Assembly (NCBI RefSeq): GCF_965641715.1
Contig: NZ_OZ282453.1
Source of the DNA: Escherichia coli
GTDB lineage: Bacteria; Pseudomonadota; Gammaproteobacteria; Enterobacterales; Enterobacteriaceae
Direction: 5' to 3' (one strand)
Length of the DNA stretch: 64,000 nt
Under the pieces are notes generated by a model that was given only the letters and a program-made list of their open reading frames with translations, did no database searches and had not been told where the DNA came from. How positions within the stretch are numbered: position 1 is the stretch's first letter; each line of letters starts with the position of its first letter. Below, piece by piece: positions 44,646 through 64,000 of this stretch. The position numbers were made by a program, and so were the translations under genes.

Positions 44646-45470
44646 TTAGTTAAACTTAATGTTTTTCATGCAACTACGTAGCAAGCTAACAACAGTATCA
44701 TAGCTCAAAGGTGGTTCTCCGGTCTTAGGCCAGAACTCACTGGCATGTTGAAAAAGATAATCAGCTATCGCTGCTGGACTCTCTCTTCTTAGCCTCATAT
44801 CACGATGATAGAGCGAAATAATAGCCATGAGTATTTCAGTTCGAGGAACAGCATGTTTTTGTTTTTGCGCCTCAGATTGTGATTTATATTTATTGGCGTT
44901 TTTTATCCGTTTTTGTTCGCATAAGACTATATCAATGAATTTTTGAATCTGTACCTTTGTAATCCACAAAACCTCAAAAAGATAATAATTTTCTTTTTCA
45001 TCATAATTTACATAAAGAATTACCTTACAATTTATATTAGGCGTACCCGCCAGTAGAAAATGAATAGGCCAGGAATCCGGTTGCCCCTCATGCTTAACTA
45101 ACAGATCTTTATATTCATAATCAACAGCCCATAAACCGGATATAAAGCATCGAATAAAACCATTTTTATCAATTAAATTATTTTCATCAGGGATTCTTAT
45201 AGAGCTTAAGTCTGACAACATAATATTGCCATTTCTATCTCGTGGTAAATATTTCAGATTAGATAAGAACTCATCCAGTTGACCATCAATCTTCAAACCA
45301 CATGAAACATCATACTCATCATCATGGAATTCCATGCATAGCTCTACATCTCGTTCTCTGGCAAACCAGAGTATATCCTTTTCACTACAACCAATTTTTT
45401 CTGAAGCTTCATCCAACTGGTAGTAATCTCTGAGCAGAGAATCAGTATTATTAATTTTTAAAATATTCAT
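44646..45470 (-). CDS. Hypothetical protein (274 aa), AT-rich island cargo
   Basis: Long ORF; start overlaps the integrase stop by 4 bp; no motif recognised. Confidence 0.5.
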   Translation of the reverse strand: MNILKINNTDSLLRDYYQLDEASEKIGCSEKDILWFARERDVELCMEFHDDEYDVSCGLKIDGQLDEFLSNLKYLPRDRNGNIMLSDLSSIRIPDENNLIDKNGFIRCFISGLWAVDYEYKDLLVKHEGQPDSWPIHFLLAGTPNINCKVILYVNYDEKENYYLFEVLWITKVQIQKFIDIVLCEQKRIKNANKYKSQSEAQKQKHAVPRTEILMAIISLYHRDMRLRRESPAAIADYLFQHASEFWPKTGEPPLSYDTVVSLLRSCMKNIKFN

Positions 45471-46657
45471 TTATGAGTACCAATTAGCTCAGATAAATAA
45501 TTAGCATACCATTGCATCATTTCTCTTCTCCCTTCGAGATATTGGGCATGGTTATAAATTCCACGAATAGAGTTTTTGTCCGAATGAGCAAGCTGGGTTT
45601 CAATCCAAGCGCTGTTAAATCCTTTCTCATGTAGAATTGTACTCATCGTATGCCTGAAACCATGTCCCGTAACACGCCCTGCATATCCAATACGTTTAAA
45701 CACCTGATTGATGCTTGCTTCACTCATAAATTTGCTAGGATCGTTGCGTCCAGGGAACATCAGCGGGTAGTTCCCAGTTAGTTCTTTCAAACTTTTGAGA
45801 TGGGATAATGCTTGTTTTGGTAACGGGACAATATGGCTCCTACGCATTTTCATACGTTCTTTTGGGATCTCCCACACCGCATTATCAAAATCCACCTCTC
45901 GCCACTCACCTGCTCGTAGTTCTCCAGTTCGTAGACCTGTCAGGATAAGTAAATGCGCCCCCAACAATACAATTGGACTTCCTGAATAAGAATTAAGGGC
46001 ATTAAAGAACTCCGGTAGTTCGTTGGCTTTGAGGAATGGATAGTGGACTGCTTCATGTCCTTGCATCGCACTGGCAAGATCCGGTGCCGGATTGTAGATT
46101 GCCCTACCCGTTACGATGGCATAGCGAAAAACTTCACCGCATCGCTGACGGACTTTCTTCGCTTTCTCCATAGCGCCTCGAGCTTCTATCAACCTCAGAA
46201 CTTCAAGCAGTTCAAGGGGCTGAATATCAGCTATAGGTCTGTGCCCAATATGCGGAAAAATGTCTTTCTCAAATGCCTCAATGATGTCGGAAGCATAGCC
46301 CTCAGACCATTTGGATGATTTCATTTTGTGCCACTCTAACGCCACTTCTCTGAATGGGTTAAGTGTCTCAATCGCTGCGTTTAAAGCCTGCTTTTTGGCT
46401 TTTTTGACTTCGCCGGGATCTTCACCTGCTGCGAGTAGTTTCTTTGCGTCTTCTCGTTTTTGTCTGGCATCAGCAAGTGTGACTGTTGGATAAACACCAA
46501 AGGACAATCGTTTCTCTTTACCAGCAAAACGGTATTTCATACGCCAGTAACGCGAGCCATTAGGTTCGACCTGAAGGTATAGGCCACCTCCATCAAACAG
46601 CTTATAGCTCTTCTCTTTTCCTTTCGCAGCTTCAACCTTGCGGGCATTCAGCATCAT
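45467..46657 (-). CDS. int: Tyrosine integrase (P4-type), tRNA-adjacent
   Basis: N-terminal SYKLFDGGGLYLQVEPNGSRYWRMKYRF; C-terminal catalytic HxxR...Y (HGFRHT ... GIYNHAQYLEGR); ORF extends to 46726. Confidence 0.85.
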   Translation of the reverse strand: MMLNARKVEAAKGKEKSYKLFDGGGLYLQVEPNGSRYWRMKYRFAGKEKRLSFGVYPTVTLADARQKREDAKKLLAAGEDPGEVKKAKKQALNAAIETLNPFREVALEWHKMKSSKWSEGYASDIIEAFEKDIFPHIGHRPIADIQPLELLEVLRLIEARGAMEKAKKVRQRCGEVFRYAIVTGRAIYNPAPDLASAMQGHEAVHYPFLKANELPEFFNALNSYSGSPIVLLGAHLLILTGLRTGELRAGEWREVDFDNAVWEIPKERMKMRRSHIVPLPKQALSHLKSLKELTGNYPLMFPGRNDPSKFMSEASINQVFKRIGYAGRVTGHGFRHTMSTILHEKGFNSAWIETQLAHSDKNSIRGIYNHAQYLEGRREMMQWYANYLSELIGTHK

Positions 46658-46821
46658 TGGGGGCACATTTCCTAGACCGAACAGAACATGCCCCTGATTG
46701 TGCCCCCAACCGCGTGTTGATTTCAAGAGACAAGGGTTGACCTCAAACGTATGAAAACAACGTAATATATATGTTTTTAAATGATTTTGTTGATGTGGGT
46801 TGACTTGGGAAAACTAGGTGA

Positions 46822-46897
46822 TGGTGCCGATAATAGGAGTCGAACCTACGACCTTCGCATTACGAATGCGCTGCTCTACCAACTGAGCTATATCGGC
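46822..46897 (-). tRNA. thrW: tRNA-Thr (anticodon CGU)
   Basis: 76-nt cloverleaf GCCGATATAGCTCAGTTGGTAGAGCAGCGCATTCGTAATGCGAAGGTCGTAGGTTCGACTCCTATTATCGGCACCA on the minus strand; 3' end duplicated at attL. Confidence 0.9.
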
Positions 46898-47011
46898 CCT
46901 GAAAGGACATGTTCACGAACGTGAATCACGGTGGACAAGGGTAAAACTAACCGGGCGATGCGTCAATGGCCTTGTGAATCAAATGGCTACTTTTGCATCA
47001 CCCGGTTTTAT

Positions 47012-48265
47012 TTACGCACGAATGGTGTAATCACCAATGCCGATCCACTTGTAAGTGGTCAGTGCTTCCAGCCCCATTGGGCCACGCGCGTGGAGTTTTT
47101 GTGTGCTTACCGCCACTTCCGCACCCAGTCCAAACTGGCCGCCGTCGGTAAAACGCGTAGAGGCGTTAACGTAAACAGCGGACGAATCCACTTCGTTAAC
47201 AAAACGCTGGGCGTTGCGCATATCGCGGGTCAGGATCGCATCGGAGTGTTGTGTGCCGTGTTCACGAATATGGGCGATGGCATCGTCAAGATCGCTGACG
47301 ATTTTGACGTTCAAATCTAATGACAGAAACTCATCGTCATACTCTTCGGCTTTAACCGCCACCACCTTCGCGGGGCCTGCCTGCAACTGTGTCAGCGCAG
47401 CTGCATCTGCGTGTACTGTCACGCCGCTTTCCGCCATTTGTTTGCTTAATGCGGGCAGGAAGCTATCGGCGATGTTTTTATTCACCAGCAACGTTTCTAC
47501 CGTATTACATGTGCTCGGACGCTGAGTTTTCGCGTTGACGATCACTTTTAATGCTTCAGCGATCTCTGCACTTTCATCAACGTAAATATGGCATACGCCT
47601 ATACCACCTGTGATCACCGGGATCGTCGACTGTTCGCGGCACAGTTTATGCAAACCAGCCCCGCCGCGCGGGATCAGCATGTCGATGTATTTATCCATAC
47701 GCAGCATTTCACTGACCAGCGCACGGTCAGGATTATCAATCGCCTGCACGGCACCCGCCGGTAAGCCACAGGATTTCAGGGCGTCCTGAATCACCGCCAC
47801 CGTTGCAGCGTTAGTGCGACAGGTTTCTTTGCCACCGCGCAGGATCACCGCGTTACCTGTTTTCAGGCACAGCGAAGCGACATCAACCGTCACGTTCGGG
47901 CGCGCTTCATAAATCACGCCAATAACCCCCAGCGGTACGCGACGACGCTCAAGACGCAGGCCGCTGTCCAGTACGCCGCCATCGATTACCTGCCCCACCG
48001 GATCGGCGAGGTTGCACACCTGGCGCACATCATCGGCAATGCCTTTCAGCCGTGCGGGCGTCAGTGCCAGACGGTCAAGCATCGCTTCGCTAAGGCCATT
48101 GGCACGCGCGTCAGCAACATCCTGGGCGTTAGCGTTGAGGATGATTTCGCTTTGTGCTTCCAGTTCATCGGCGATTTTTTCCAGCACGCGATTTTTTTCG
48201 CGGCTGGAGAGTTGCGCTAATTTATACGAGGCTTGCTTCGCGGCAATGCCCATTTGTTCCAGCAT
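47012..48265 (-). CDS. proA: Gamma-glutamyl phosphate reductase
   Basis: 417 aa, full-length match to ProA by recollection. Confidence 0.95.
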
Positions 48266-48276
48266 CGGCCAGCTCC

Positions 48277-49380
48277 TTAACGGGTAATCATGTCATCACG
48301 GTGAACGGCAACCGGGCCGTATTCATATCCCAGTATTGCATCAATTTCTTGCGAGTGGTGTCCGGCAATACGGCGTAATGCATCGCTGTTGTAACGACTG
48401 ACGCCGTGGGCGATATCGCGACCTTCGAGGTTACAAATGCGGATGACTTCACCACGCGAGAAATTGCCAGTCACGCTTTTAATGCCTTTCGGCAACAGGG
48501 AGCTGCCGCGTTCAAGAATGGCGGCAGTTGCCCCTTCATCTACCGTGATTTCACCCGCCGGCGGCGCACCGAAAATCCAGCGTTTACGGTTTTCAAGCGG
48601 AGTCGCCTGGGCATGGAACAGCGTACCGACGGAAATGCCTTCCATCACATCACCAATGACGCCCGGCTTGCTGCCCGCGGCAATAATGGTGTCGATACCC
48701 GCACGGCAAGCCACGTCCGCGGCCTGCAATTTGGTACTCATGCCGCCAGTTCCGAGGCCTGAAACGCTGTCACCGGCAATCGCGCGCAGTGCGTCATCAA
48801 TGCCGTAAACATCTTTAATCAGTTCTGCCTGCGGATTGCTGCGCGGGTCAGCGGTATACAAACCTTTTTGATCGGTCAGCAGCAACAGTTTATCGGCACC
48901 CGCCAGAATCGCCGCCAGCGCAGAAAGGTTGTCGTTATCGCCGACTTTAATCTCTGCCGTAGCGACAGCATCGTTCTCATTGATTACCGGAACGATATTG
49001 TTATCGAGCAACGCACGCAGGGTGTCGCGGGCGTTCAGGAAGCGTTCACGGTCTTCCATATCAGCACGAGTCAGCAGCATTTGCCCGACGTGAATGCCAT
49101 AAATCGAAAACAGCTGTTCCCACAGTTGAATCAGTCGACTCTGCCCTACCGCCGCCAGCAGTTGTTTCGAGGCGATAGTCGCTGGCAGTTCCGGGTAACC
49201 CAGGTGCTCACGTCCGGCGGCGATCGCGCCCGACGTCACAATAACAATCCGATGCCCGGCGGCATGTAACTGCGCGCACTGGCGAACAAGTTCAACGATA
49301 TGGGCACGGTTCAGACGGCGCGATCCGCCTGTTAGCACACTGGTGCCGAGTTTTACCACCAGCGTCTGGCTGTCACTCAT
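48277..49380 (-). CDS. proB: Glutamate 5-kinase
   Basis: Start at [19 protein letters not shown] (367 aa); the ORF track extends 29 codons upstream. Confidence 0.95.
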
Positions 49381-49667
49381 GATTCTCTGCCATTCAATTT
49401 TAGGAAAAATGATATCAAACGAACGTTTTAGCAGGACTGTCGTCGGTTGCCAACCATCTGCGAGCAAAGCATGGTGTTTTGTTGCGCGGGATCAGCAAGC
49501 CTAGCGGCAGTTGTTTACGCTTTTATTACAGATTTAATAAATTACCACATTTTAAGAATATTATTAATCTGTAATATATCTTTAACAATCTCAGGTTAAA
49601 AACTTTCCTGTTTTCAACGGGACTCTCCCGCTGAATATTCGCGCGTTAATTAAAATCAGGAATGAAA

Positions 49668-50723
49668 ATGAAAAAGAGCACTCTGGCATTAGTGGTGATG
49701 GGCATTGTGGCATCTGCATCCGTACAGGCCGCAGAAATATATAACAAAGACGGTAATAAACTGGATGTCTATGGCAAAGTTAAAGCCATGCATTATATGA
49801 GTGATAACGACAGTAAAGATGGCGACCAGAGTTATATCCGTTTTGGTTTTAAAGGCGAAACACAAATTAACGATCAACTGACTGGTTATGGTCGTTGGGA
49901 AGCAGAGTTTGCCGGTAATAAAGCAGAGAGTGATACTGCACAGCAAAAAACGCGTCTCGCTTTTGCCGGGTTGAAATATAAAGATTTGGGTTCTTTCGAC
50001 TATGGCCGTAACCTGGGCGCGTTGTATGACGTGGAAGCCTGGACCGATATGTTCCCGGAATTTGGTGGCGACTCCTCGGCGCAGACCGACAACTTTATGA
50101 CCAAACGCGCCAGCGGTCTGGCGACGTATCGGAACACCGACTTCTTCGGCGTTATCGATGGCCTGAACTTAACCCTGCAATATCAAGGGAAAAACGAAAA
50201 CCGCGACGTTAAAAAGCAAAACGGCGATGGCTTCGGCACGTCATTGACATATGACTTTGGCGGCAGCGATTTCGCCATTAGTGGGGCCTATACCAACTCA
50301 GATCGCACCAACGAGCAGAACCTGCAAAGCCGTGGCACAGGCAAGCGTGCAGAAGCATGGGCTACAGGTCTGAAATACGATGCCAATAATATTTATCTGG
50401 CAACTTTTTATTCTGAAACACGCAAAATGACGCCAATAACTGGCGGCTTTGCCAATAAGACACAGAACTTTGAAGCGGTCGCTCAATACCAGTTTGACTT
50501 TGGTCTGCGTCCATCGCTGGGTTATGTCTTATCGAAAGGGAAAGATATTGAAGGTATCGGTGATGAAGATATGGTCAATTATATCGATGTCGGGGCTACA
50601 TATTATTTCAACAAAAATATGTCAGCGTTTGTTGATTATAAAATCAACCAACTGGATAGCGATAACAAATTGAATATTAATAATGATGATATTGTCGCGG
50701 TTGGCATGACCTATCAGTTTTAA
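49668..50723 (+). CDS. phoE: Outer-membrane phosphoporin
   Basis: 351 aa from [21 protein letters not shown]; porin C-terminus ...GMTYQF. Confidence 0.95.
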
Positions 50724-50761
50724 TGATTATTGCCGGATGTGATGCATCCGGCATATTTCAC

Positions 50762-51220
<459 letters not shown>

Positions 51221-52465
51221 TTAACACAAACGTTTTTCGATCCATTCTGTGATTTCCTGAAGACCTTTGTCAAAATTCCGATACACCGGGTTAAATGGGA
51301 TCTCTAATAATTTACCGTCAGCAGATGATGAGGTGATTAAGCGTGAGTCCTCTTCCGGGCTGAACGGATCGTTCTTCCAGTAGCCTGATAACATTGGCGT
51401 TGGGCAGCGACGTCCCAGCAATCCTTGCACTTTTAATGAATAGCGATTCAGCTCCACGCGCAACGCTTCGTCGGAAGCATCATGCATCCCCAAACGACTG
51501 GCCAGAACGTCAAGATACATTTCCGGCACCTGTTGCTGGCACTTAAAATCACTCAACAGGGTATGAACTACCGGACCAAGACAGGCAACCGCTTTCAGAC
51601 GCGGCGATTCAAGGTATGCCAGACGCACGGCAACGTTAGCGCCGAAACGGAAACCAAAGGCCGCGACGCGAGTGTGATCCACCCACGGTACGTTAGGCAG
51701 TGCCTTTAAGACGTGCTGATGCAACAGGCTGGAGTCCTGGGTGAGCTTCCATTTTGAAGAAAAGCCCACCGACGGCATATCAATAGTCAGCATCGCAATG
51801 CCGCGCGGCGCAAAATAACGTTCATACAGGCTGTAATAGTCCGTCTGCATCGCATCCAGACCACCACACATTAATACCGTCGGGAACGGGCCATCGCCTT
51901 TCGGCATATGCAAAAAGCCGGTGATGGGCGCACCGCCAGGTACGGTAAACTCCATCTGCCGCATCGTGCCCGGTAGACGCTGAGCGGCCTCTTCATAGGC
52001 GCGGTTTGACAAAGCCTGCGCTTGCTCGGCCAGGTCATCTCCTTTCAGATGAGGATAGGCGGCAATGTTGTACAACGTAGCCGCATGCAGCCAGTGACGA
52101 CCACTGAGTTGCGGATCTTCTTCCGCACAGGCTTTTTGTTGCCACACCATCGCCTGGGTGGCCCACTCATAAATCCAGTTGCCGCCACGGTAGCCAATCA
52201 CCGTATCGTATAAATCATCGTCGGTACGTTCGGCATCGCTCATCACAATACGTGCCTGGACGTCGAGGATTTCGCGTGGGTCAATGCCGCGCCAGATCCA
52301 CATCAGACGGTTAATCATGCGATACCAGTGAGGGATGGTTTTACCATCAAGGGCCGACTGCACAGGCGGTTGTGCGCCGTGATTAAAGCGGCGGACTAGC
52401 GTCGAGGTTTCAGGATGTTTAAAGCGGGGTTTGAACAGGGTTTCGCTCAGGTTTGCCTGTGTCAT
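51221..52465 (-). CDS. frsA: Fermentation/respiration switch esterase
   Basis: 414 aa; alpha/beta hydrolase. Confidence 0.9.
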
Positions 52466-52556
52466 GGATGCAGCCTCCAGAATACTTACTGGAAACTATT
52501 GTAACCTGCCTGAAGTTAAAAAGAACAACGCCCGGCAATGCCAGGCGTTGAAAAGA

Positions 52557-53015
52557 TTAGCGACCGGAGATTGGCGGGACGAATACGACGCCCATATCCC
52601 ACGGCTGTTCGATCCAGGTATCTTGCGGGATATCAACAACATAATCATCAACCAGCGGACGACCAGCCGGTTTTGCAAAGATGGTGACAAAGTGCGCTTT
52701 TGGATACATTTCACGAATCGCAACCGCAGTACCACCGGTATCCACCAGGTCATCAATAACGATGAAGCCTTCGCCATCGCCTTCTGCGCGTTTCAGCACT
52801 TTAAGCTCGCGCTGGTTGTCGTGATCGTAGCTGGAAATACAAACGGTATCGACATGACGAATACCCAGTTCACGCGCCAGTAACGCACCCGGTACCAGAC
52901 CGCCACGGCTTACGGCAATAATGCCTTTCCATTGTTCAGAAGGCATCAGTCGGCTTGCGAGTTTACGTGCATGGATCTGCAACATGTCCCAGGTGACGAT
53001 GTATTTTTCGCTCAT
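52557..53015 (-). CDS. gpt: Xanthine-guanine phosphoribosyltransferase
   Basis: 152 aa [20 protein letters not shown]...; PRTase motif [12 protein letters not shown]. Confidence 0.95.
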
Positions 53016-53275
53016 GTGAAGTGTCCCAGCCTGTTTATCTACGGCTTAAAAAGTGTTCGAGGGGAAAATAGGTTGCGCGAGATTATAGAGATCTGGCGCA
53101 CTAAAAACCAGTATTTCACATGAGTCCGCGTCTTTTTACGCACTGCCTCTCCCTGACGCGGGATAAAGTGGTATTCTCAAACATATCTCGCAAGCATGTC
53201 TTGTGTTGACAACATTTTCTGCTAACCCTGTGACCTGCAATACTGTTTTGCGGGTGATCGACAAGGAGACTTAAC

Positions 53276-54733
53276 GTGTCTGAACTGTCTCAATTATCTC
53301 CACAGCCGCTGTGGGATATTTTTGCCAAAATCTGTTCTATTCCTCACCCGTCCTATCATGAAGAGCAACTCGCTGAATACATTGTTGGTTGGGCAAAAGA
53401 GAAAGGTTTCCATGTCGAACGCGATCAGGTAGGTAATATCCTGATTCGTAAACCTGCTACAGCAGGTATGGAAAATCGTAAACCGGTCGTCTTGCAGGCC
53501 CACCTCGATATGGTGCCGCAGAAAAATAACGACACCGTGCATGACTTCACGAAAGATCCTATCCAGCCTTATATTGATGGCGAATGGGTTAAAGCGCGCG
53601 GCACCACGCTGGGTGCGGATAACGGCATTGGTATGGCCTCTGCACTGGCGGTTCTGGCTGACGAAAACGTGGTTCACGGTCCGCTGGAAGTGCTGCTGAC
53701 TATGACCGAAGAAGCCGGTATGGACGGTGCTTTTGGCTTACAGAGCAACTGGTTGCAGGCTGATATTCTGATTAACACCGACTCCGAAGAAGAAGGTGAA
53801 ATCTACATGGGTTGCGCGGGGGGTATCGACTTCACCTCCAACCTGCATTTAGATCGTGAAGCGGTTCCAGCTAGTTTTGAAACCTTCAAGTTAACCTTAA
53901 AAGGTCTGAAAGGCGGTCACTCCGGCGGTGAAATCCACGTTGGCCTCGGTAATGCCAACAAACTGCTGGTGCGCTTCCTGGCGGGTCATGCAGAAGAACT
54001 GGACCTGCGTCTTATCGATTTCAACGGCGGCACACTGCGTAACGCCATCCCGCGTGAAGCCTTTGCGACCATTGCTGTCGCAGCTGATAAAGTCGACGCC
54101 CTGAAATCTCTGGTGAATACCTATCAGGAGATCCTGAAAAACGAGCTGGCAGAGAAAGAGAAAAATCTGGCCTTGTTGCTGGACTCTGTAGCGAACGATA
54201 AAGCTGCCCTGATTGCGAAATCTCGCGATACCTTTATTCGTCTGCTGAACGCCACCCCGAACGGTGTGATCCGCAATTCCGACGTGGCAAAAGGTGTGGT
54301 CGAAACCTCCCTGAACGTCGGTGTGGTGACCATGACTGACAATAACGTAGAAATTCACTGCCTGATCCGTTCTCTGATCGACAGCGGTAAAGACTACGTG
54401 GTGAGCATGCTGGATTCGCTGGGTAAACTGGCTGGCGCGAAAACCGAAGCGAAAGGCGCATATCCTGGCTGGCAGCCGGACGCTAATTCTCCGGTGATGC
54501 ATCTGGTACGTGAAACCTATCAGCGTCTGTTCAACAAAACGCCGAACATCCAGATTATCCACGCGGGCCTGGAATGTGGTCTGTTCAAAAAACCGTATCC
54601 GGAAATGGACATGGTTTCTATCGGGCCAACAATCACCGGTCCACACTCTCCGGATGAGCAAGTTCACATCGAAAGCGTAGGTCATTACTGGACACTGCTG
54701 ACTGAACTGCTGAAAGAAATTCCGGCGAAGTAA
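53276..54733 (+). CDS. pepD: Cytosol nonspecific dipeptidase (aminoacyl-histidine dipeptidase)
   Basis: 485 aa; M20-family metallopeptidase. Confidence 0.95.
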   Translation: MSELSQLSPQPLWDIFAKICSIPHPSYHEEQLAEYIVGWAKEKGFHVERDQVGNILIRKPATAGMENRKPVVLQAHLDMVPQKNNDTVHDFTKDPIQPYIDGEWVKARGTTLGADNGIGMASALAVLADENVVHGPLEVLLTMTEEAGMDGAFGLQSNWLQADILINTDSEEEGEIYMGCAGGIDFTSNLHLDREAVPASFETFKLTLKGLKGGHSGGEIHVGLGNANKLLVRFLAGHAEELDLRLIDFNGGTLRNAIPREAFATIAVAADKVDALKSLVNTYQEILKNELAEKEKNLALLLDSVANDKAALIAKSRDTFIRLLNATPNGVIRNSDVAKGVVETSLNVGVVTMTDNNVEIHCLIRSLIDSGKDYVVSMLDSLGKLAGAKTEAKGAYPGWQPDANSPVMHLVRETYQRLFNKTPNIQIIHAGLECGLFKKPYPEMDMVSIGPTITGPHSPDEQVHIESVGHYWTLLTELLKEIPAK

Positions 54734-54789
54734 TTATTTGATTTGCTGCCGGATGGCGTTTAATCGCCTTCCGGCAGTTTCATCCTTCA

Positions 54790-55336
54790 TTATCCTTCGA
54801 TAAATGCCATCCCTGTAAACGTTCGTCGCGGGTTGCCACGTTCAATCTGGTGATGGAACATTCGCCGCTGCGATTTCAGCGCCGCGCTATTTTCCTGTTG
54901 CTGTTGCTCCAGCTTCCAGGCAATCAGCAATCGCGCCAGCCGTTTGTTAGCATGCTGGCTGCGTTCTGACTGAACCTTCACGCTAATCCCGGTTGCCAGA
55001 TGCGTGGCGCGTACCGCCGAGTCGGTTTTATTGACATGTTGACCGCCCGGCCCCGACGAACGCAGCGTGTCAGGATAACGCCCGGCTTCGGTTTCCAGCA
55101 CCGTTACCGCGACGTCTTGTCGGGTAAAAACGACCAACAGAGAAGAACGCTGCGCCAATCGGGTAGCCGCGTCCGGGGTGTAAATCTGGCATCCCCACTA
55201 CGCGCTGCATGTTGGGTAAATTTGCCGTGGTGTGTAATTGTTGGATCGCTAAACTCTCGATCCACAGGTCATCAGATGCGATGGTAAATACCGCATCGGA
55301 TAAGGGACGAATATATTTGCCCATGTACCATTCCAT
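54790..55336 (-). pseudogene. prfH: Remnant of an rtcB-like / prfH module: RtcB N-terminal fragment fused out of frame to the PrfH C-terminal part
   Basis: 55070-55336 encodes an RtcB-like N-terminus ([18 protein letters not shown]); 54790-55158 encodes the release-factor GGQ region ([10 protein letters not shown]); overlapping, frame-discordant ORFs. Confidence 0.55.
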
Positions 55337-55465
55337 TTATACTCGTCATACTTCAAGTTGCATGTACTGCGACTGCGTTCGTTCACCCCAGTCACTTACT
55401 TATGTAAGCTCCTGGGGATTCACTCGCTTGTCGCCTTCCTGCAACTCGAATTATTTAGAGTATAT
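55337..55465. repeat. ERIC (enterobacterial repetitive intergenic consensus) element
   Basis: Contains atgtaagctcctggggattcac and aagtaagtgactggggtgaacg (reverse strand), matching the ERIC core as I recall it; terminal inverted repeats. Confidence 0.7.
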
Positions 55466-55641
55466 AAATATAAAAATCAGGAAATGGCAGACGAATCCAG
55501 GGCAAGAAAAAAAGAATTAATCCTGGAAAGGTCTGCAAAGAGTCATTGATAAAGGATTTGTCATGATTTACCTCCTTGCAGTTTGTGGAATAAGAAAACG
55601 CGCACATACCAGGCGGGCGTTATTTTCATTGCAAGCTGGAT

Positions 55642-56094
55642 TTAATGTTGCGGTTTATATCGCATATAAAAATTAGTAAACCAAGCTCCACGGCATTCAA
55701 CGCGCTGCTGCTTAACTGTCTGAAAACCATAACGTTCAAAAAAGGGTTTTGCGGTTATGCTGGCGTCCACCGTAAGTTCGGATTCAGACTTAATCAAAGG
55801 TTTTAACAAAGCGCTGGCAACCCCACGGCGGGTGTATTCAGGGTCAACAAATAACATATCGATATAATGTTCAATGCGGGAAATAAAACCAACCGGTTGT
55901 GCATTAATGACTGCAACCCGCACTTGTGATTTCGCGAGTTTCTCCTTCCAGCGAGATTCGTCAATCTGCGCCCAGGCGGCAATTTGTTGTGGTGAATAAT
56001 GCTGACTGGCGGTCATCATAACCGCTCTAATGAAAATAGCGCATAGTTGCTGAAAATCGCCAGGCTGATAGTTTCTTATTTGTATGTTATTCAT
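55642..56094 (-). CDS. yafP: GNAT-family acetyltransferase
   Basis: 150 aa from MNNIQIRNYQPGDFQQL; the ORF track includes a 20-codon upstream extension. Confidence 0.85.
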   Translation of the reverse strand: MNNIQIRNYQPGDFQQLCAIFIRAVMMTASQHYSPQQIAAWAQIDESRWKEKLAKSQVRVAVINAQPVGFISRIEHYIDMLFVDPEYTRRGVASALLKPLIKSESELTVDASITAKPFFERYGFQTVKQQRVECRGAWFTNFYMRYKPQH

Positions 56095-56123
56095 AATGTA
56101 AGTTTTGTTTTGAATACCCGCAT
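56091..56123 (-). pseudogene. yafO: yafO toxin remnant: 10 codons (MRVFKTKLTL, stop) between yafN and yafP
   Basis: ATG 2 bp after the yafN stop encodes MRVFKTKL (as the K-12 YafO N-terminus, by recollection) then terminates; the ~130-codon body is absent. Confidence 0.5.
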
Positions 56124-56125
56124 CC

Positions 56126-56419
56126 TTATTCCTTAAAGTCATTGAAATCATCATCCGTCATATCATTAAGATATTGTTCAGCGCGGCGTGTAATTTCCTC
56201 TAATCTTGCAGCACTTGGACGGAAGCGCGCCTTTATGGGCTTTTTCTCCTCTTGTTCAGCAAGCATGTCCATTAACGCTTCGAATGCGCTGGCACTTAAG
56301 AGATATCCTGCGGGGCGATTATTAGAAAGAACCGCAACCGGTTGATCAATAAAGTATTTAGCTGGGTTTTTACGTAACTCAGTAATATTGACCGATTTTT
56401 CAGCGAGAATTCGATGCAT
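56126..56419 (-). CDS. yafN: Type II antitoxin YafN
   Basis: 97 aa MHRILAEKSVNITELRKNPAKYF... Confidence 0.85.
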   Translation of the reverse strand: MHRILAEKSVNITELRKNPAKYFIDQPVAVLSNNRPAGYLLSASAFEALMDMLAEQEEKKPIKARFRPSAARLEEITRRAEQYLNDMTDDDFNDFKE

Positions 56420-56470
56420 ACAGTGATCCCCTCATAATAATGCACACTAGAATAGACATAATAGTATACA

Positions 56471-57526
56471 TCATAATCCCAGCACCAGTTGTCTTTCCAT
56501 TTGAGGGTCAAGCAACGTCACATGCAGCCCCACCAGTCGCACACCGCGCCCACCGCGGCGTTCATCCCAGGTTTTACGCGCGGTGGCGATTAGATCAGCT
56601 TTATTCAGCCGCGGCCAGACGTGCTCCTGGGTGGTTTGCTGAAAATCGTCGAACTTTAATTTCACCCCCTGGCGAGCAATCAGTAAATCAGGTTTTACCT
56701 TTGCCAGACGGCGTTCAAGTTCCGGATACAGCCGCTCGATAATCGCTTCACATTCAGACCAGTGATGAATATCTTCCGCCATCGTGCGTTCCACGCCGAC
56801 GGATTTTCGTAACCGTTCGCTGTTAACATCGCGCTCGTCAATCCCCTGACTACGCTCCCACAAAATGCGGCCAAATTTGCCAAAGCGTTTAAGCAGAATC
56901 ACCAGATCACACTTTTGTACATCACCGCAGGTCCGCAGCCCCATCGCTTCCAGTTTTGCCGCCGAGACTTTGCCGACGCCGGGGATTTTTGCCAGCGGTA
57001 AGGTTTGCAGAAATGCCGGAACTTCTGCCGGAGTAATCACAAACTGGCCGTTGGGTTTATTCATGTCGGAGGCGATTTTGGCGAGAAACTTTACTGGTGC
57101 CACGCCCGCAGACGCCGTCAGTTGCAGCTCGCTGAAAATCGTCTGGCGGATTTCCTGGGCGATGAGGGTCGCAGAACCGTGGCAATGGACGCTGTCGGTG
57201 ACATCGAGATAAGCCTCATCCAGTGACAACGGCTCAATGCGCGAGGTGTAGCGCGAGAAGATTTCACGGATATGATTTGAGGCTTCTTTGTAGGCGTCAA
57301 AGCGCCCCGGAAGCAAGGTGAGATGTGGGCATAATTTGAGCGCCATCCCTGTCGGCATAGCGCTGCGTACGCCAAATTTACGCGCGGGATAATTGGCGGT
57401 GCTGATCACCCCCCGACGTTCGCGGCTGCCGCCAATAGCAATAGGGATATCGCGCAGGGCGGGATTGTCGCGCATCTCCACTGCGGCGAAAAAGCAGTCC
57501 ATATCCACATGAATGATTTTACGCAT
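56471..57526 (-). CDS. dinB: DNA polymerase IV (Y-family)
   Basis: 351 aa [22 protein letters not shown]... Confidence 0.95.
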
Positions 57527-57596
57527 TACTCACCTCTCAACACTGGTAAAGTATACAGTGATTTCAGGGTTTGAGAAATGCGTAAAGATTCAGCAT

Positions 57597-58340
57597 TTAG
57601 CGCGTTCGCTGCGAAAGCACCTGCTGCTTATCCAGCTTTTGCACCAGCGGCTGCACCACTTTATCCCCATGCTGACCAAAGTATTGATACAGCGTATCGG
57701 ACGCACTTTTGGTCAGCACCATAATCTCAATACGCCGATTGCCCGCGCTTTGCGGATTTTTGGCATCCAGCAGCATCTGGTCAGCCATTGCGCTTACCTG
57801 CATCACTTTATCTTCCGGCATTCCGGCCTCTTCCAGCACCCGACGAGCCGAAAGCGCGCGATCGCCCGAAAGGTTCCAGTTGTTGTAGATATTGTTTTTG
57901 TAGGCCATCGCATCGGTATGCCCGGTAATAATAATTTTGTTATCGAGCGAGTCGAACACTGGCGCGAGCTCCACCAGCAGCGTTTTAAAGAACGGCATAA
58001 TCTGCGCGCTGCCGCGTTCAAACATATTGCGGTTCTGGTCGTCTTTAATCAGCACGCGTAATCCCTGCGGGACAATCTCCATCTCCAGATTCGCTTCCAT
58101 ATGCGCATCACGGGCAATGGTGTTGATACTGGTTGCCAACTCGCCAAGCTCGGTGGCGGATTTCTTCTTCAGCAGCGCCGTTTTCTCATTCACATCACGC
58201 GCTTTTTTCTCCGTCTCTTCCGGCACCGCCACGGTGGCAGGTTTTGGCGGATGAGACGGGCTGATTTTATTTAACGGCGACAGCCCACCACCGTTAAAAA
58301 TCGACTGCCCGTGCAGCGCGGCGATAATGCTTTCACGCTC
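57597..58340 (-). pseudogene. mbhA: MotB-like (LafU/MbhA) fragment lacking N-terminal TM region; Flag-2 remnant
   Basis: C-terminal OmpA-like domain (IIITGHTDAMAY...NRRIEIMV); the N-terminal 50 codons of the ORF are antisense readthrough of the flhA-like sequence. Confidence 0.6.
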
Positions 58341-60066
58341 GGATTTACTGACGCTGTTGACAATCAACTTTATCGTCGTCACCAAAGGGGCCGAGCGTAT
58401 TTCCGAGGTTTCTGCCCGCTTTACCCTGGACGCGATGCCCGGCAAACAGATGGCGATTGACGCTGACCTTAACGCCGGGTTGATCAACCAGGCGCAGGCG
58501 CAAACCCGGCGTAAAGATGTCGCCAGCGAGGCCGATTTCTACGGCGCGATGGACGGGGCGTCGAAGTTTGTGCGCGGGGATGCCATCGCCGGGATGATGA
58601 TTCTGGCGATCAACCTGATCGGTGGTGTCTGTATCGGGATCTTCAAATACAACCTGAGCGCTGACGCTGCCTTCCAGCAATATGTGCTGATGACCATCGG
58701 CGACGGGCTGGTGGCGCAGATCCCTTCCCTGCTGCTCTCCACCGCGGCGGCGATTATCGTCACCCGCGTCAGCGACAACGGCGATATCGCCCATGACGTA
58801 CGCCACCAACTGCTGGCAAGCCCGTCGGTGCTCTACACCGCTACCGGAATTATGTTTGTGCTGGCGGTAGTGCCGGGGATGCCCCACCTGCCGTTTTTGC
58901 TGTTCAGCGCCCTGCTTGGCTTTACCGGCTGGCGGATGAGCAAACGCCCGCAGGCGGCGGAGGCGGAAGAGAAAAGCCTCGAAACGCTGACCCGTACCAT
59001 CACCGAAACCAGCGAGCAACAGGTCAGTTGGGAGACTATTCCGCTGATCGAGCCTATCAGTTTAAGCCTCGGCTACAAGCTGGTGGCGCTGGTGGACAAA
59101 GCCCAGGGCAACCCGCTCACCCAGCGTATTCGCGGCGTGCGACAGGTGATATCCGACGGCAACGGCGTGCTGCTGCCGGAGATCCGCATTCGGGAAAACT
59201 TCCGCCTTAAGCCCAGTCAGTACGCTATTTTCATCAACGGCATTAAGGCCGATGAAGCAGATATTCCGGCGGATAAACTGATGGCCCTGCCCTCCAGCGA
59301 AACCTACGGCGAGATAGACGGCGTGCTGGGGAACGACCCGGCGTACGGGATGCCGGTGACCTGGATCCAGCCCGCGCAGAAGGCGAAGGCACTAAATATG
59401 GGGTATCAGGTGATCGACAGCGCCAGCGTGATTGCCACCCATGTGAATAAGATTGTACGCAGCTATATTCCTGATTTGTTTAACTATGACGACATCACAC
59501 AGTTGCATAACCGTTTGTCGTCGATGGCACCGCGCCTGGCGGAGGATTTAAGCGCGGCGCTGAATTACAGCCAGTTGCTGAAAGTGTACCGCACACTACT
59601 GACCGAAGGCGTTTCCCTGCGCGACATCGTCACCATCGCCACCGTGCTGGTCGCCAGTAGCGCGGTGACCAAAGATCACATTCTGCTGGCGGCCGATGTG
59701 CGCCTGGCGCTGCGGCGCAGCATTACTCATCCGTTCGTTCGCAAACAGGAGCTGACGGTGTATACGCTGAATAATGAGCTGGAAAATCTGCTCACCAACG
59801 TAGTGAATCAGGCGCAACAGGGCGGCAAAGTGATGCTCGACAGCGTGCCGGTCGACCCGAATATGCTCAACCAGTTCCAGAGCACGATGCCGCAGGTGAA
59901 GGAGCAGATGAAAGCGGCGGGGAAAGATCCGGTGCTGCTGGTGCCGCCGCAGTTGCGTCCTTTGCTGGCGCGCTATGCAAGGTTGTTTGCGCCGGGGCTG
60001 CATGTGCTGTCGTATAACGAAGTGCCGGACGAGCTGGAGTTGAAGATTATGGGGGCCTTGAGTTGA
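58327..60066 (+). pseudogene. fhiA: FlhA-like (LfhA/FhiA) export-gate protein lacking ~130 N-terminal residues; Flag-2 remnant
   Basis: Similarity begins at TINFIVVTKGAERISEVSARFTLDAMPGKQM (FlhA ~residue 130); no N-terminal TM1-3; junction with mbhA near 58330-58350. Confidence 0.6.
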
Positions 60067-60096
60067 TTGAGGAGGCTATATAAGGGCCAGGACCGT

Positions 60097-60184
60097 CCCC
60101 TCGCCCCTTTGGGGAGAGGGTTAGGGTGAGGGGAAAGTGCGCGCTGAGCCCCTCACCCCGGCCCTCTCCCCAAAGGGGCGAGGG
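60097..60184. repeat. Imperfect palindromic element (~34-bp arms) between convergent fhiA and yafL
   Basis: cccctcgcccctttggggagagggttagggtgagggg versus cccctcaccccggccctctccccaaaggggcgaggg; read directly. Confidence 0.4.
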
Positions 60185-60227
60185 AGAAAATCGTGTACGA
60201 CTTTAGCTTTTTCGCGGTATTGCCGTC

Positions 60228-60977
60228 CTACAAAATCGTCTCTTCCGTCAAAATCCGCCGCGCGCCTAAAAAATGATCCTGCCAGAAAGGTTCAGCTAAC
60301 CGACTTACCCGAATGGTTTCCCCGGTGCGCGGTGACTCAATAAACTGACCGTCGCCCAGATACACCCCCATATGGTCGGCAATCTCGCGGCTGTGGATAT
60401 GGAAAAACAGCAAATCTCCCCGGCGCAGGTCGTTATTCGCCACAATCGTTGCCCGATGGTAGTGATACATCTCATTAGCCGTACGCGGGAGCTTCGCCTC
60501 GAGGATCTTGTTGTAGGCATAAAAAACCAACCCGCTACAGTCAAAGCCTTTATCAGGCCGCGTGCCGCCCCAGACGTAAGGCTTGCCAAGCTGCTGCTCC
60601 AGGCGGTGAATCGCCACTTCGGTGATGTTATGCAGATGGTCGCTGCTTAAAAAGTGGTTATTTTCCGCCAGCGCCTGCCAGCGTCTGTCACTCGCCTTGA
60701 GCGGCGCAGGAAACCATTCTGGATGCTGTTTTATCTGTTCGCGGTTGTGCTGGCGCAGCGCCCTTCTGCTTTCGGCATTGCCTTCCACAATATAGCTGGC
60801 CTGCTTTTTCAGATGGGTTTGGTACTGTTTTAATAAACGCGCACGGTTTTGCATCCGCTGGCGGGCGGCGTAGCTGAAAGAGATATGTGATGTGGTGGCG
60901 CAGGCAAATGAAGAAAACGGCAAGCAAAGCAACAGTAATCCCGACAACACAAAAGAGGGAATCGACGGCAAAGACAT
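60228..60977 (-). CDS. yafL: NlpC/P60-family lipoprotein peptidase
   Basis: 249 aa from MSLPSIPSF...; catalytic Cys context GFDCSGLVFYAY. Confidence 0.8.
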   Translation of the reverse strand: MSLPSIPSFVLSGLLLLCLPFSSFACATTSHISFSYAARQRMQNRARLLKQYQTHLKKQASYIVEGNAESRRALRQHNREQIKQHPEWFPAPLKASDRRWQALAENNHFLSSDHLHNITEVAIHRLEQQLGKPYVWGGTRPDKGFDCSGLVFYAYNKILEAKLPRTANEMYHYHRATIVANNDLRRGDLLFFHIHSREIADHMGVYLGDGQFIESPRTGETIRVSRLAEPFWQDHFLGARRILTEETIL

Positions 60978-61186
60978 TCTCAATAATGGCTGGTCATGCA
61001 TTGATGTTGCAGTGTATCCTGGCCCGTACCTGAACAAACTTAATAAACCATTATTATAAAATTAATAAATATATTTCAGTTTATTATGTAAAAACATCCG
61101 TTTATTAAATTACTCATGGATTGTCGCTGTTGCTCATTTGAGCTACAATTCAAGCTGAATAAATATACAGCACAGGAGATACCCCA

Positions 61187-61447
61187 ATGGCTGCTAACGC
61201 GTTTGTTCGCGCCCGAATCGATGAAGATCTGAAGAATCAGGCGGCGGACGTACTGGCCGGGATGGGGCTGACCATCTCTGACCTGGTTCGCATAACCCTC
61301 ACAAAGGTCGCGCGTGAAAAGGCATTGCCGTTTGATTTACGCGAGCCTAATCAATTAACCATTCAATCAATCAAAAACAGCGAAGCTGGCGTTGATGTTC
61401 ATAAGGCCAAAGACGCCGATGATTTATTTGATAAATTAGGAATTTAA
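61187..61447 (+). CDS. dinJ: Type II antitoxin DinJ
   Basis: 86 aa MAANAFVRARIDEDLKNQAADVLAGMGLTISD... Confidence 0.9.
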   Translation: MAANAFVRARIDEDLKNQAADVLAGMGLTISDLVRITLTKVAREKALPFDLREPNQLTIQSIKNSEAGVDVHKAKDADDLFDKLGI

Positions 61448-61449
61448 AT

Positions 61450-61727
61450 ATGATTCAAAGGGATATTGAATACTCGGACAATTTTCAAAGGATGTAAAAC
61501 TTGCACAAAAGCGTCATAAGGATATGAATAAATTGAAATATCTTATGACGCTTCTTATCAATAATACTTTACCGCTTCCAGCTGTTTATAAAGACCACCC
61601 GCTGCAAGGTTCATGGAAAGGTTATCGCGATGCTCATGTCGAACCGGACTGGCTCCTGATTTACAAACTTACCGATAAACTTTTACGATTTGAGAGAACT
61701 GGAACTCACGCGGCGCTCTTTGGGTAA
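61450..61727 (+). pseudogene. yafQ: yafQ toxin gene with an apparent -1 frameshift (split into a 15-codon N-terminal ORF and a C-terminal ORF from 61476)
   Basis: ATG at 61450 gives MIQRDIEYSDNFQRM then stop at 61495; the conserved remainder (GQFSKDVKLAQKRHKDMNKLKYL...) is in the +2 frame; consistent with loss of one G in the tcggga run near 61476. Confidence 0.55.
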
Positions 61728-61882
61728 AGCCCGCTTCCGATGAAATTTGTAAACCCTGCGCCGACAGGCTTGCGTAAAACTCTTTTGGTGATAATGTGAG
61801 CCTTCCAAATCCAGACTATTCCGATTTGGGATCCATTTTGCCGTCCTGGCGTGTGTAACCGTTTTATCAAGGAATAAGCAGT

Positions 61883-62623
61883 ATGCGTAAAATCGCATTA
61901 ATTCTTGCGATGTTGTTGATCCCGTGCGTTTCGTTTGCCGGTTTGCTGGGCAGCAGTAGCTCGACCACGCCAGTGAGCAAAGAGTATAAGCAGCAGTTGA
62001 TGGGATCCCCTGTCTACATCCAGATCTTCAAGGAAGAACGTACGCTCGATCTCTACGTCAAAATGGGCGAGCAATATCAACTGCTCGACAGCTATAAAAT
62101 CTGTAAATATTCCGGCGGCTTAGGGCCAAAACAGCGTCAGGGCGATTTCAAAAGCCCGGAAGGGTTTTATAGCGTCCAGCGTAATCAGTTAAAACCAGAC
62201 AGCCGTTACTACAAAGCGATTAATATTGGTTTCCCCAATGCCTATGACCGTGCGCATGGTTATGAAGGGAAATACCTGATGATCCACGGCGATTGTGTTT
62301 CCATCGGCTGCTACGCGATGACCAATCAGGGCATTGACGAGATTTTCCAGTTCGTTACTGGCGCACTGGTATTTGGTCAGCCGAGCGTGCAAGTGAGCAT
62401 TTACCCGTTCCGCATGACCGACGCTAATATGAAGCGCCACAAATATTCCAACTTTAAGGACTTCTGGGAGCAACTGAAGCCGGGTTACGACTACTTTGAG
62501 CAAACCCGTAAGCCACCGACCGTTTCTGTGGTCAATGGTCGTTACGTGGTCAGCAAGCCGTTAAGCCACGAAGTTGTGCAACCACAGCTGGCATCAAACT
62601 ACACGCTCCCCGAGGCAAAATAA
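61883..62623 (+). CDS. yafK: L,D-transpeptidase-like periplasmic protein
   Basis: 246 aa with signal peptide; YkuD-like HGDCVSIGC catalytic region. Confidence 0.85.
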
Positions 62624-63361
62624 GCGCCATTCGCCTGGCATAATTTTTTGCCAGGTTTCATTGCCCGTCAGCGGCTGTGTCGCAATCACCGTGACCACAT
62701 CATTCGGTGTGGTCTGCGAGCTGAAGTCGATTTCCACATCCTGATCCAGCAACGTTGCCACGCCAAACGGCGCGCGGCGGGTGATCCAGTGTAAATTAGT
62801 CGAGCAATACGCCATTACATAGCGCCCGTCCGAAAGCAGCATGTTGAAAACGCCCTTCGCCCGCAGTTCATCCGCCAGTGAGGCGATATATTTAAACACT
62901 GCCGCCATGTTGCCCGGCGTGCGCGGGTAACGCTGCGTTAATTTATGCAGCAGCCAGCAAAAGGCTTTTTCGCTGTCGGTTTCACCGACCGGGCGGAAGT
63001 TGCCGGTTTCCAGTGATTTGTAGCCCGTCAGTTGCCCGTTATGGGCATAAGTCCAGTTACGCCCCCATAACTCGCGGGTAAACGGGTGAGTATTTTCCAG
63101 CGCCACCTCGCCCCGATTAGCCTGGCGAATATGAGCCACCACCGAACAAGATTTTATCGGGTAGTCCTGGACCAGTTTGGCGATAGGTGAGTTAAAGCTG
63201 GGTTGCGGATCTTTAAATGTGCGACAGCCTTTACCTTCGTAAAAGGTAATGCCCCAGCCATCTTTATGTGGCCCGGTTCCACCACCACGCTGCACCAGAC
63301 CGGTGAAACTAAAGCAGATATCGGTAGGGACGTTGGCGCTCATCCCGAGCAATTCGCACAT
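62594..63361 (-). CDS. yafJ: Class II glutamine amidotransferase-like protein
   Basis: Start at [10 protein letters not shown] (N-terminal Cys nucleophile), 255 aa. Confidence 0.85.
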
Positions 63362-63427
63362 GGGTAACCTCCACAACAGCGGGAGCGCATGGCCCCCGGC
63401 GAAGATTGATTTAAGAATTTTCAGGTC

Positions 63428-63556
63428 GGATGCGGCGTGAACGCATTATTCGGCCTACGGTTCGCGTACAGATTTGTAGGCATGATAAGACGCGTCAGCG
63501 TCGCATCAGGCATCAGCGCACAAATGCCGGATGCGGCGTAAACGTCTTATCCGGCC
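63428..63556. repeat. REP/BIME cluster (three REP units in alternating orientation)
   Basis: gccggatgcggcgtaaacgtcttatccggcctacg and related units read directly, between yafJ and gmhA. Confidence 0.6.
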
Positions 63557-63566
63557 TACGCCAGAC

Positions 63567-64000
63567 TTACTTAACCATCTCTTTTTCAATCAACTGGATC
63601 AGGATATGGATCACTTTAATGTGAATCTCCTGAATGCGGTCGGCATAACCAAAGTGCGGTACGCGAATTTCGATATCCGCCGTGCCAGCCATTTTGCCGC
63701 CGTCTTTACCGGTCAGGGTGATCACTTTCATTCCCTTCTCACGCGCCGCTGCGATCGCTTTGATCACGTTTGCAGAGTTACCGGAGGTGGAGATCCCCAG
63801 CAGTACATCGCCTTCGCGACCTACCGCTTCAACGTAACGGGAGAAAATATCATTGAAACCGAAATCGTTACCGACGCATGAAATATGACTAACGTCAGAA
63901 ATAGCAATCGCCGGGTAGCCCGGACGGTTTTCACGGTAGCGACCGGTCAACTCTTCGGCAAAGTGCATAGCGTCGCAATGGGAACCGCCGTTGCCGCAGG
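63567..64000 (-). CDS. gmhA: Phosphoheptose isomerase, partial (5' end beyond the window)
   Basis: C-terminal ~144 aa of GmhA (SIS domain, ...[29 protein letters not shown]...); gene continues past 64000. Confidence 0.85.

Follow-up and report, generated by a model that had tools for sequence, protein, structure and literature searches.

The DNA analysed here (the window) is a stretch of 64,000 nucleotides from Escherichia coli contig NZ_OZ282453.1 (RefSeq assembly GCF_965641715.1). The gene order at 52.5–58 kb of the window is gpt, pepD, two short overlapping minus-strand ORFs, yafP, yafN, and dinB (Table 1). The minus strand between pepD and yafP holds an N-terminal stub of RtcB2 and a C-terminal piece of PrfH that bears the GGQ motif, and a full-length ERIC element lies between this pair and yafP.

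An earlier note, made from the sequence alone, had described the two ORFs as an RtcB-like N-terminal fragment and a release-factor-like C-terminal fragment with the GGQ motif, overlapping out of frame. Profile searches bear out both identities. Specifically, the RtcB ORF matches NCBIfam NF007153 ‘RNA ligase RtcB family protein’ over positions 1–69 of 379 (E = 1.1e-30) and TIGR03073 ‘release_rtcB’ (E = 1.3e-28), while its match to the Pfam RtcB family is weak (23 bits, below the 27-bit cut-off). The release-factor ORF matches Pfam RF-1 (PF00472; E = 1.6e-24) and, over positions 111–200 of 200, NCBIfam TIGR03072 ‘peptide chain release factor H’ (E = 1.3e-44). Neither ORF is full length. The RtcB2 stub scores 106.9 bits against a curated full-length cut-off of 407 and falls far short of the ~379 residues of RtcB2; the PrfH fragment scores 152.1 bits against the TIGR03072 equivalog cut-off of 166.65 and is likewise shorter than a full-length PrfH (~200 aa). 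The stub is 97% identical to residues 1–69 of intact RtcB2. The PrfH piece is 91% identical to residues 105–204 of intact E. coli PrfH, GGQ included, and a second BLASTP segment of it spans intact residues 32–54.

The two ORFs lie in different frames and have 89 nt in common, as the out-of-frame overlap in the earlier note implied. Alignment indicates that the limits of both ORFs overshoot the homologous DNA: the RtcB-derived part is 55118–55324 and the PrfH-derived part is 54790–55117. The RtcB ORF begins at an in-frame ATG further upstream, runs through the 69 RtcB codons, and ends with 16 codons read out of frame from prfH DNA; the PrfH frame stays open for 41 nt into rtcB DNA. The overlap of the ORFs is read-through across the junction 55117/55118 into the DNA of the other gene, not an overlap of the genes’ own sequences.

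The prfH remnant and pepD are convergent, with a GC-rich hairpin between them that is conserved in all aligned loci and probably acts as a bidirectional terminator. Its predicted folding energy is −27.1 kcal/mol on the plus strand and −25.1 kcal/mol on the minus strand, with z of −6.5 and −6.2, respectively. The hairpin was not called by a simple terminator scan, and the promoter and terminator scan of the region gave counts no higher than in shuffled sequence. Over positions 45000–64000 (19 kb), the best identity of the window to any of 5426 complete RefSeq E. coli genomes is only 98.0–98.3%, so its source lineage is not closely represented among these genomes.

Table 1. Features of the pepD–yafP region, in window coordinates; L002 is a comparison locus to which the remnants were aligned.
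Feature	Position	Strand	Description
pepD	53276–54733	+	convergent with prfH'
GC-rich hairpin	54745–54778	both	between pepD end (54733) and prfH' stop (54790–54792)
Release-factor ORF	54790–55158	−	122 aa, TTG start, contains SSGPGGQ
prfH remnant, 3' segment	54790–55066	−	codons ~117–204 plus stop; GGQ peptidyl-hydrolase domain and C-terminal tail; L002 1691–1967
prfH remnant, 5' segment	55067–55117	−	17 codons, residues ~34–50/53, between both junctions; L002 2157–2207
Substitution cluster	55074–55090	−	7 substitutions in 17 bp; ETETGRYS to ETEAGRYP
RtcB ORF	55070–55336	−	88 aa, 267 bp, ATG start; equivalent of K-12 ykfJ (b0235)
rtcB2 remnant	55118–55324	−	codons 1–69 of 379, start ATG 55324–55322; aligns to L002 3235–3441
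Full-length ERIC (IRU)	55338–55464		127 bp, intergenic between yafP and rtcB2', with 13 bp between it and the downstream rtcB2 start codon
Spacer ORF, 50 aa	55455–55607	−	between yafP and ERIC
Spacer ORF, 15 codons	55545–55592	−	between yafP and ERIC
yafP	55642–56094	−	
yafO stub	56093–56125		between yafN and yafP
yafN	56126–56419	−	

Two deletions in the rtcB2-prfH operon

A megablast search with positions 54600–55700 (a 1101-bp query) found the pepD–yafP locus everywhere in 5426 complete E. coli genomes, in several length classes. We aligned the window with the intact locus of strain UTAK-13, with that of the K-12-like strain 3A, and with that of PS10-3, the best full-length match. The UTAK-13 locus has a prfH of 615 bp and an rtcB of 1140 bp, which overlap by 4 bp. 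The order pepD, prfH', rtcB', ERIC, yafP, dinB is the same in the window, at the intact UTAK-13 locus, and at ykfJ/prfH of MG1655.

The earlier note had proposed an internal deletion in an ancestral rtcB-prfH pair. The alignment to intact loci supports a deletion remnant but replaces the one deletion with two, of 1027 and 189 bp, both of which can be mapped to base level. A single-deletion model fails against the K-12-like locus, where only deletion 1 is present.

Deletion 1 (1027 bp, junction 55117/55118) removes 933 nt from the 3' end of rtcB2 and 98 nt from the 5' end of prfH, namely RtcB2 codons 70–379 and PrfH codons 1–33. Its ends share a 6–7-bp match, TGTCGGG on the prfH side and TGCCGG(A/G) on the rtcB2 side. 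The junction of the two genes, with the stop-start overlap of rtcB2 and prfH, lies inside the deleted segment, and the remnants are still adjacent. Alignment places the same deletion in the K-12-like strain 3A and in O157:H7 Sakai.

Deletion 2 (189 bp, 63 codons, junction 55066/55067) is in frame and removes PrfH residues ~54–116. It is bounded by imperfect 16-bp direct repeats, CGAACGCAG(C/T)GT(C/G)TCA, which encode two ...TLRS... motifs of PrfH. This deletion is missing from K-12 and Sakai and is found in PS10-3 and TB06052. Counted from the K-12 start position, the prfH remnant of the window is 501 − 189 = 312 bp long.

After the two deletions, no function is expected to be left. The RtcB2 stub stops at residue 68/69; in intact RtcB2 the NDIGCG motif does not begin until about residue 73, and the His motifs that follow it all fall in the deleted part. 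NDIGCG and the later His motifs are catalytic in RtcB ligases. Thus the stub has none of the metal-binding and guanylylated-histidine residues of RtcB2, and RefSeq labels the same 207 bp in PS10-3 and in strain 3A as ‘RtcB family protein, missing C-terminus’. The rtcB2-prfH remnant of this host would not supply an RNA ligase.

The PrfH piece keeps the GGQ peptidyl-hydrolase motif. A cryo-EM study has identified residues 9–12, R83, H86, and R88 of PrfH as the pocket for the 3'-phosphate of cleaved A1493. In intact-protein numbering, all of these fall inside the deleted segments (residues 1–33 and ~54–116), and the pocket is absent. The prfH remnant represents part of a PrfH gene rather than a PrfH protein and would no longer provide a damage-recognising release factor. 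The PrfH frame has no ATG start; its sole candidate starts are a TTG in rtcB-derived DNA and an internal GTG, and no Shine-Dalgarno motif is recognisable by eye before either of them.

We conclude, with a probability of roughly 94%, that the region 54790–55324 is a non-functional remnant of the chromosomal rtcB2-prfH operon that arose through two deletions. The 1027-bp deletion, between short matching sequences, came first and is the same event as in K-12 and O157:H7. The 189-bp in-frame deletion, between the imperfect 16-bp repeats inside prfH, followed later, probably as neutral decay of a gene already dead. Both deletions bear what looks like the signature of slipped-strand or short-homology illegitimate recombination.

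Distribution of the junctions and the substitution cluster

The frequency of each junction in the 5426 complete E. coli genomes was obtained with short junction-spanning queries, which are unable to match undeleted alleles contiguously. Junction 1 (56-nt query, at least 80% covered) is present in 2688 genomes, about half, and the interior of rtcB2 is kept in 2675. The rtcB2-prfH operon, a characterised anti-ribotoxin system, is clearly polymorphic for presence and absence. Junction 2 is present in 32 of the 5426 genomes, 31 of which carry both junctions in one contiguous 201-bp match, and no clean case of deletion 2 without deletion 1 was seen. Deletion 2 is therefore a rare secondary event, nested within the deletion-1 background.

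Two loci depart from these classes. The 32nd genome with junction 2, O157:H7 TR01 (locus L004, NZ_CP033605.1; 1063–1788), has the 189-bp-deleted junction mixed with undeleted sequence and a 2-bp insertion. It had been a candidate junction-2 carrier with a longer prfH, and it was set aside on alignment as a chimeric-looking locus that is probably mis-assembled. E. coli C (locus L008, NZ_CP020543.1; 991–1545) carries deletion 1 together with a different internal prfH deletion of ~170 bp, by which the GGQ region is lost. It is a third decay allele at this locus, and such further independent decay is as expected of a neutral pseudogene.

The allele of the window is not identical to that of any other carrier. 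Its junction 1 reads TGTCGGG, like that of O157:H7, while K-12, PS10-3, and TB06052 have TGCCGGG. None of the 31 genomes matches the window exactly across both junctions (best identity 99.5%). The TGTCGGG/TGCCGGG split and the lack of an exact match indicate that the history of the allele includes recombination, point mutation, or a recurrent event. The T/C difference itself could be a point mutation, the product of recombination, or the trace of another crossover point.

Beside junction 2, the window carries a cluster of seven substitutions relative to the K-12-like, Sakai, and intact alleles (Table 1). A 51-nt segment that includes the cluster is matched at an identity of at least 96% only in the 32 genomes that carry the 189-bp junction; in genomes without this junction, the match is never better than 88%. 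Simple slippage deletion does not explain the cluster. Third codon positions account for five of the seven changes, and the A and P variants that it encodes occur naturally in PrfH of related genera, as found by protein search. This pattern suggests that the cluster is a short tract from a diverged functional prfH.

It is possible, if doubtful, that the 189-bp loss and the cluster arrived together, either as a tract from a diverged, already-deleted prfH allele or in one complex repair event. The co-occurrence of cluster and junction in the same 32 genomes speaks for this, as do the five third-position changes and the natural occurrence of both amino-acid variants. The flanks point the same way: those of the window are Sakai-like while the other aligned carriers, PS10-3 and TB06052, differ, which implies a mosaic history. 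However, no donor was detected, with zero matches in an exact scan of 100,044 species-representative genomes for a 24-mer of the cluster. No undeleted E. coli prfH allele carrying the patch GGATAACGCCCGGCTTCGG was found, and no local template turned up on either strand when the window and two comparison loci were scanned with mismatches allowed. Joint arrival would bear only on how deletion 2 arose, not on what the locus is, and neither the cluster nor the T/C variant affects the conclusion that the locus is a pseudogene.

Predicted loss of the repair module and relation to the K-12 allele

Colicin E3 and CdiA-CT cleave 16S rRNA between A1493 and G1494. On ribosomes damaged in this way, intact PrfH binds in the A site and hydrolyses the peptidyl-tRNA, freeing the nascent peptide, after which RtcB2 religates the rRNA in the 30S subunit that has been released. 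The structure of E. coli PrfH has been solved (7SA4). Knockout of either intact gene in E. coli ATCC 25922 renders the strain sensitive to colicin E3, while knockout of the truncated genes in BW25113 leaves colicin E3 sensitivity unchanged.

The truncated form of the operon has been reported previously. Baranov et al. (2006) described a deletion of ~1000 nt in K-12 MG1655, W3110, and O157:H7 relative to CFT073, by which the upstream gene product loses its C-terminal part and RFH its N-terminal part. Two papers from 2022, one by Tian et al. and one by Maviza et al., noted that K-12 derivatives carry an inactive, truncated operon. In the MG1655 annotation, ykfJ (b0235, 267 bp, 253467–253733) and prfH (b0236, 501 bp) are pseudogenes. 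The window has this K-12-type ykfJ/prfH allele, with the same junction 55117/55118 between pepD and yafP as in strain 3A and Sakai. The remnant pair is therefore one that was already described and annotated, and it lies next to an ordinary repeat. What is new here is the base-level breakpoints and flanking repeats of both deletions, the frequency of each junction, and the continued independent decay. The current understanding of the RtcB2-PrfH system is unchanged.

Position, the 1027-bp junction, the 267-bp ykfJ-type ORF, and the full-length ERIC upstream are the same in the window and in K-12 MG1655. Other than that, the two loci differ: the window has a T at junction 1, is shorter by another 189 bp in prfH (312 bp versus 501 bp in K-12), carries the seven-substitution cluster, and has also lost the neighbouring yafO. 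Compared with an intact rtcB2-prfH locus, the DNA is orthologous, the retained parts are 91–97% identical at the protein level, and the flanking genes are the same, but 310 of 379 RtcB2 codons, 96 of 204 PrfH codons, and the 4-bp stop/start overlap are missing. The intact module protects against colicin E3, whereas the remnant in the window is predicted not to.

With neither an RNA ligase nor a damage-recognising release factor from this locus, the host would be without protection against colicin E3-type ribotoxins. Judged from the sequence and by analogy with the K-12 experiments, loss of the repair module would be complete, and rRNA damage from colicin E3 would go unrepaired. Like K-12 and O157:H7, the source strain should be without the RtcB2-PrfH defence that reverses cleavage by colicin E3 or CdiA-CT.

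A residual function of the PrfH piece has to be weighed against this reading. The truncated ORF might be expressed, so that the GGQ domain and tail (~108 aa of PrfH) serve as a stand-alone peptidyl-tRNA hydrolase or ribosome-binding factor, neo-functionalised and loosely comparable to ArfB. The GGQ domain is complete, with 91% identity to that of the functional protein, the 189-bp deletion is in frame, the GGQ motif gives a weak NCBIfam ArfB match (E = 2.1e-07), and a reviewer of the 2006 paper remarked that nobody had checked whether K-12 prfH is expressed. Like ArfB (YaeJ), the remnant is a small GGQ ORF that has no codon-recognition domain. In contrast to ArfB, however, it has, on reading of its sequence, no sign of translation start signals, neither an ATG nor a recognisable Shine-Dalgarno motif before the TTG or GTG. 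It also arose by deletion of a larger gene, and the GGQ region has been lost too in other lineages. In addition, no fusion links the PrfH frame to the rtcB stub, the residues of the ribosome-recognition domain are deleted, the loss of the GGQ region in E. coli C points to no selection on it, and knockout of the K-12 remnant did not alter colicin E3 sensitivity. We regard such a role as very unlikely. A narrower form of the idea is even less probable, namely that the double-deletion allele is a translated minimal GGQ protein (PrfH ~34–53 plus 117–204), acting as a recognition-independent peptidyl-tRNA hydrolase or ribosome-binding factor, with the mostly synonymous substitution patch left by the recombination that created the shortened gene and not by random decay. 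The least probable alternative is that the deletions are assembly or sequencing artefacts and the operon of this strain is intact. The chimeric-looking locus of O157:H7 TR01 indicates that mis-assembly does occur here, but junction 1 is present in thousands of complete genomes, the double deletion is present in 31 from unrelated sources, and each junction is clean, with short matching sequences on its flanks. Because these 31 genomes were assembled independently, resequencing is unlikely to yield a single intact ORF.

The ERIC element and the neighbouring genes

The earlier note had also placed an ERIC repeat directly upstream of the remnant. The 127-bp element lies upstream in gene orientation, with 25-nt terminal inverted repeats at 55338–55362 and 55440–55464 and TA termini. 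It contains an exact match to a 41-nt ERIC core based on the two ERIC primer sequences (chance expectation in the window 0). The element is predicted to fold as a long hairpin (−57.6 kcal/mol, z −9.3), and it is the only ERIC copy in the 64-kb window. In length, in its terminal inverted repeats, and in its TA termini, it fits the published ERIC/IRU as described in a review. The ERIC1R primer sequence, confirmed in the literature, is present exactly. Its central core matches the ERIC1R and ERIC2 primer sites, its position is intergenic, and it is an imperfect palindrome of the known type with no notable difference. Located in the 5' region of the operon, it is an ordinary member of a repeat family that is dispersed in enterobacteria. 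For the 1101-bp query, which includes the ERIC, the median number of matching places per E. coli genome is 6; one plasmid place among those listed spans only the ERIC left arm (query 739–775).

A form of the ERIC that is 72 bp shorter and consists of the arms only occupies the same site in UTAK-13, which has the intact operon, and in TB06052, which has the double deletion. The full form is present in K-12, Sakai, PS10-3, and GF43, the last with the intact operon. The ERIC is unrelated to the deletions, since either of its forms can accompany an intact or a deleted allele.

In an Rfam search of the region, the only significant match was to RF02818 V_AS5 (‘Vibrio RNA AS5’), which aligns end to end with the ERIC (55342–55465, minus strand; E = 5.8e-09) at 48.9 bits, below the gathering score of 96; no structured RNA that would explain the locus was found. 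The V_AS5 family may be a Vibrio copy of the ERIC repeat. A match to STnc350 (E = 0.98) was dismissed as chance.

Two short ORFs lie in the spacer between yafP and the ERIC, neither of which is annotated in the RefSeq records inspected. The longer encodes 50 aa with a hydrophobic stretch and runs into the ERIC arm. The shorter, as read by eye, has 15 codons, MTNPLSMTLCRPFQD and a stop, and is preceded by a strong AAGGAGG motif.

Further upstream, the toxin gene yafO is deleted, with ~379 bp missing compared with K-12, which leaves the antitoxin gene yafN orphaned. Among the best-ranked of the 5426 E. coli genomes, only GF43 has the same contiguous yafO junction, and its rtcB-prfH is intact. 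GF43 was considered as the intact progenitor, given the yafO-less arrangement in common, and was rejected: it is only ~96% identical and does not have the substitution patch. The yafO stub in the window has 10 codons, MRVFKTKLTL and a stop, and its TGA overlaps the yafP ATG, so that the coupled operon layout is kept.
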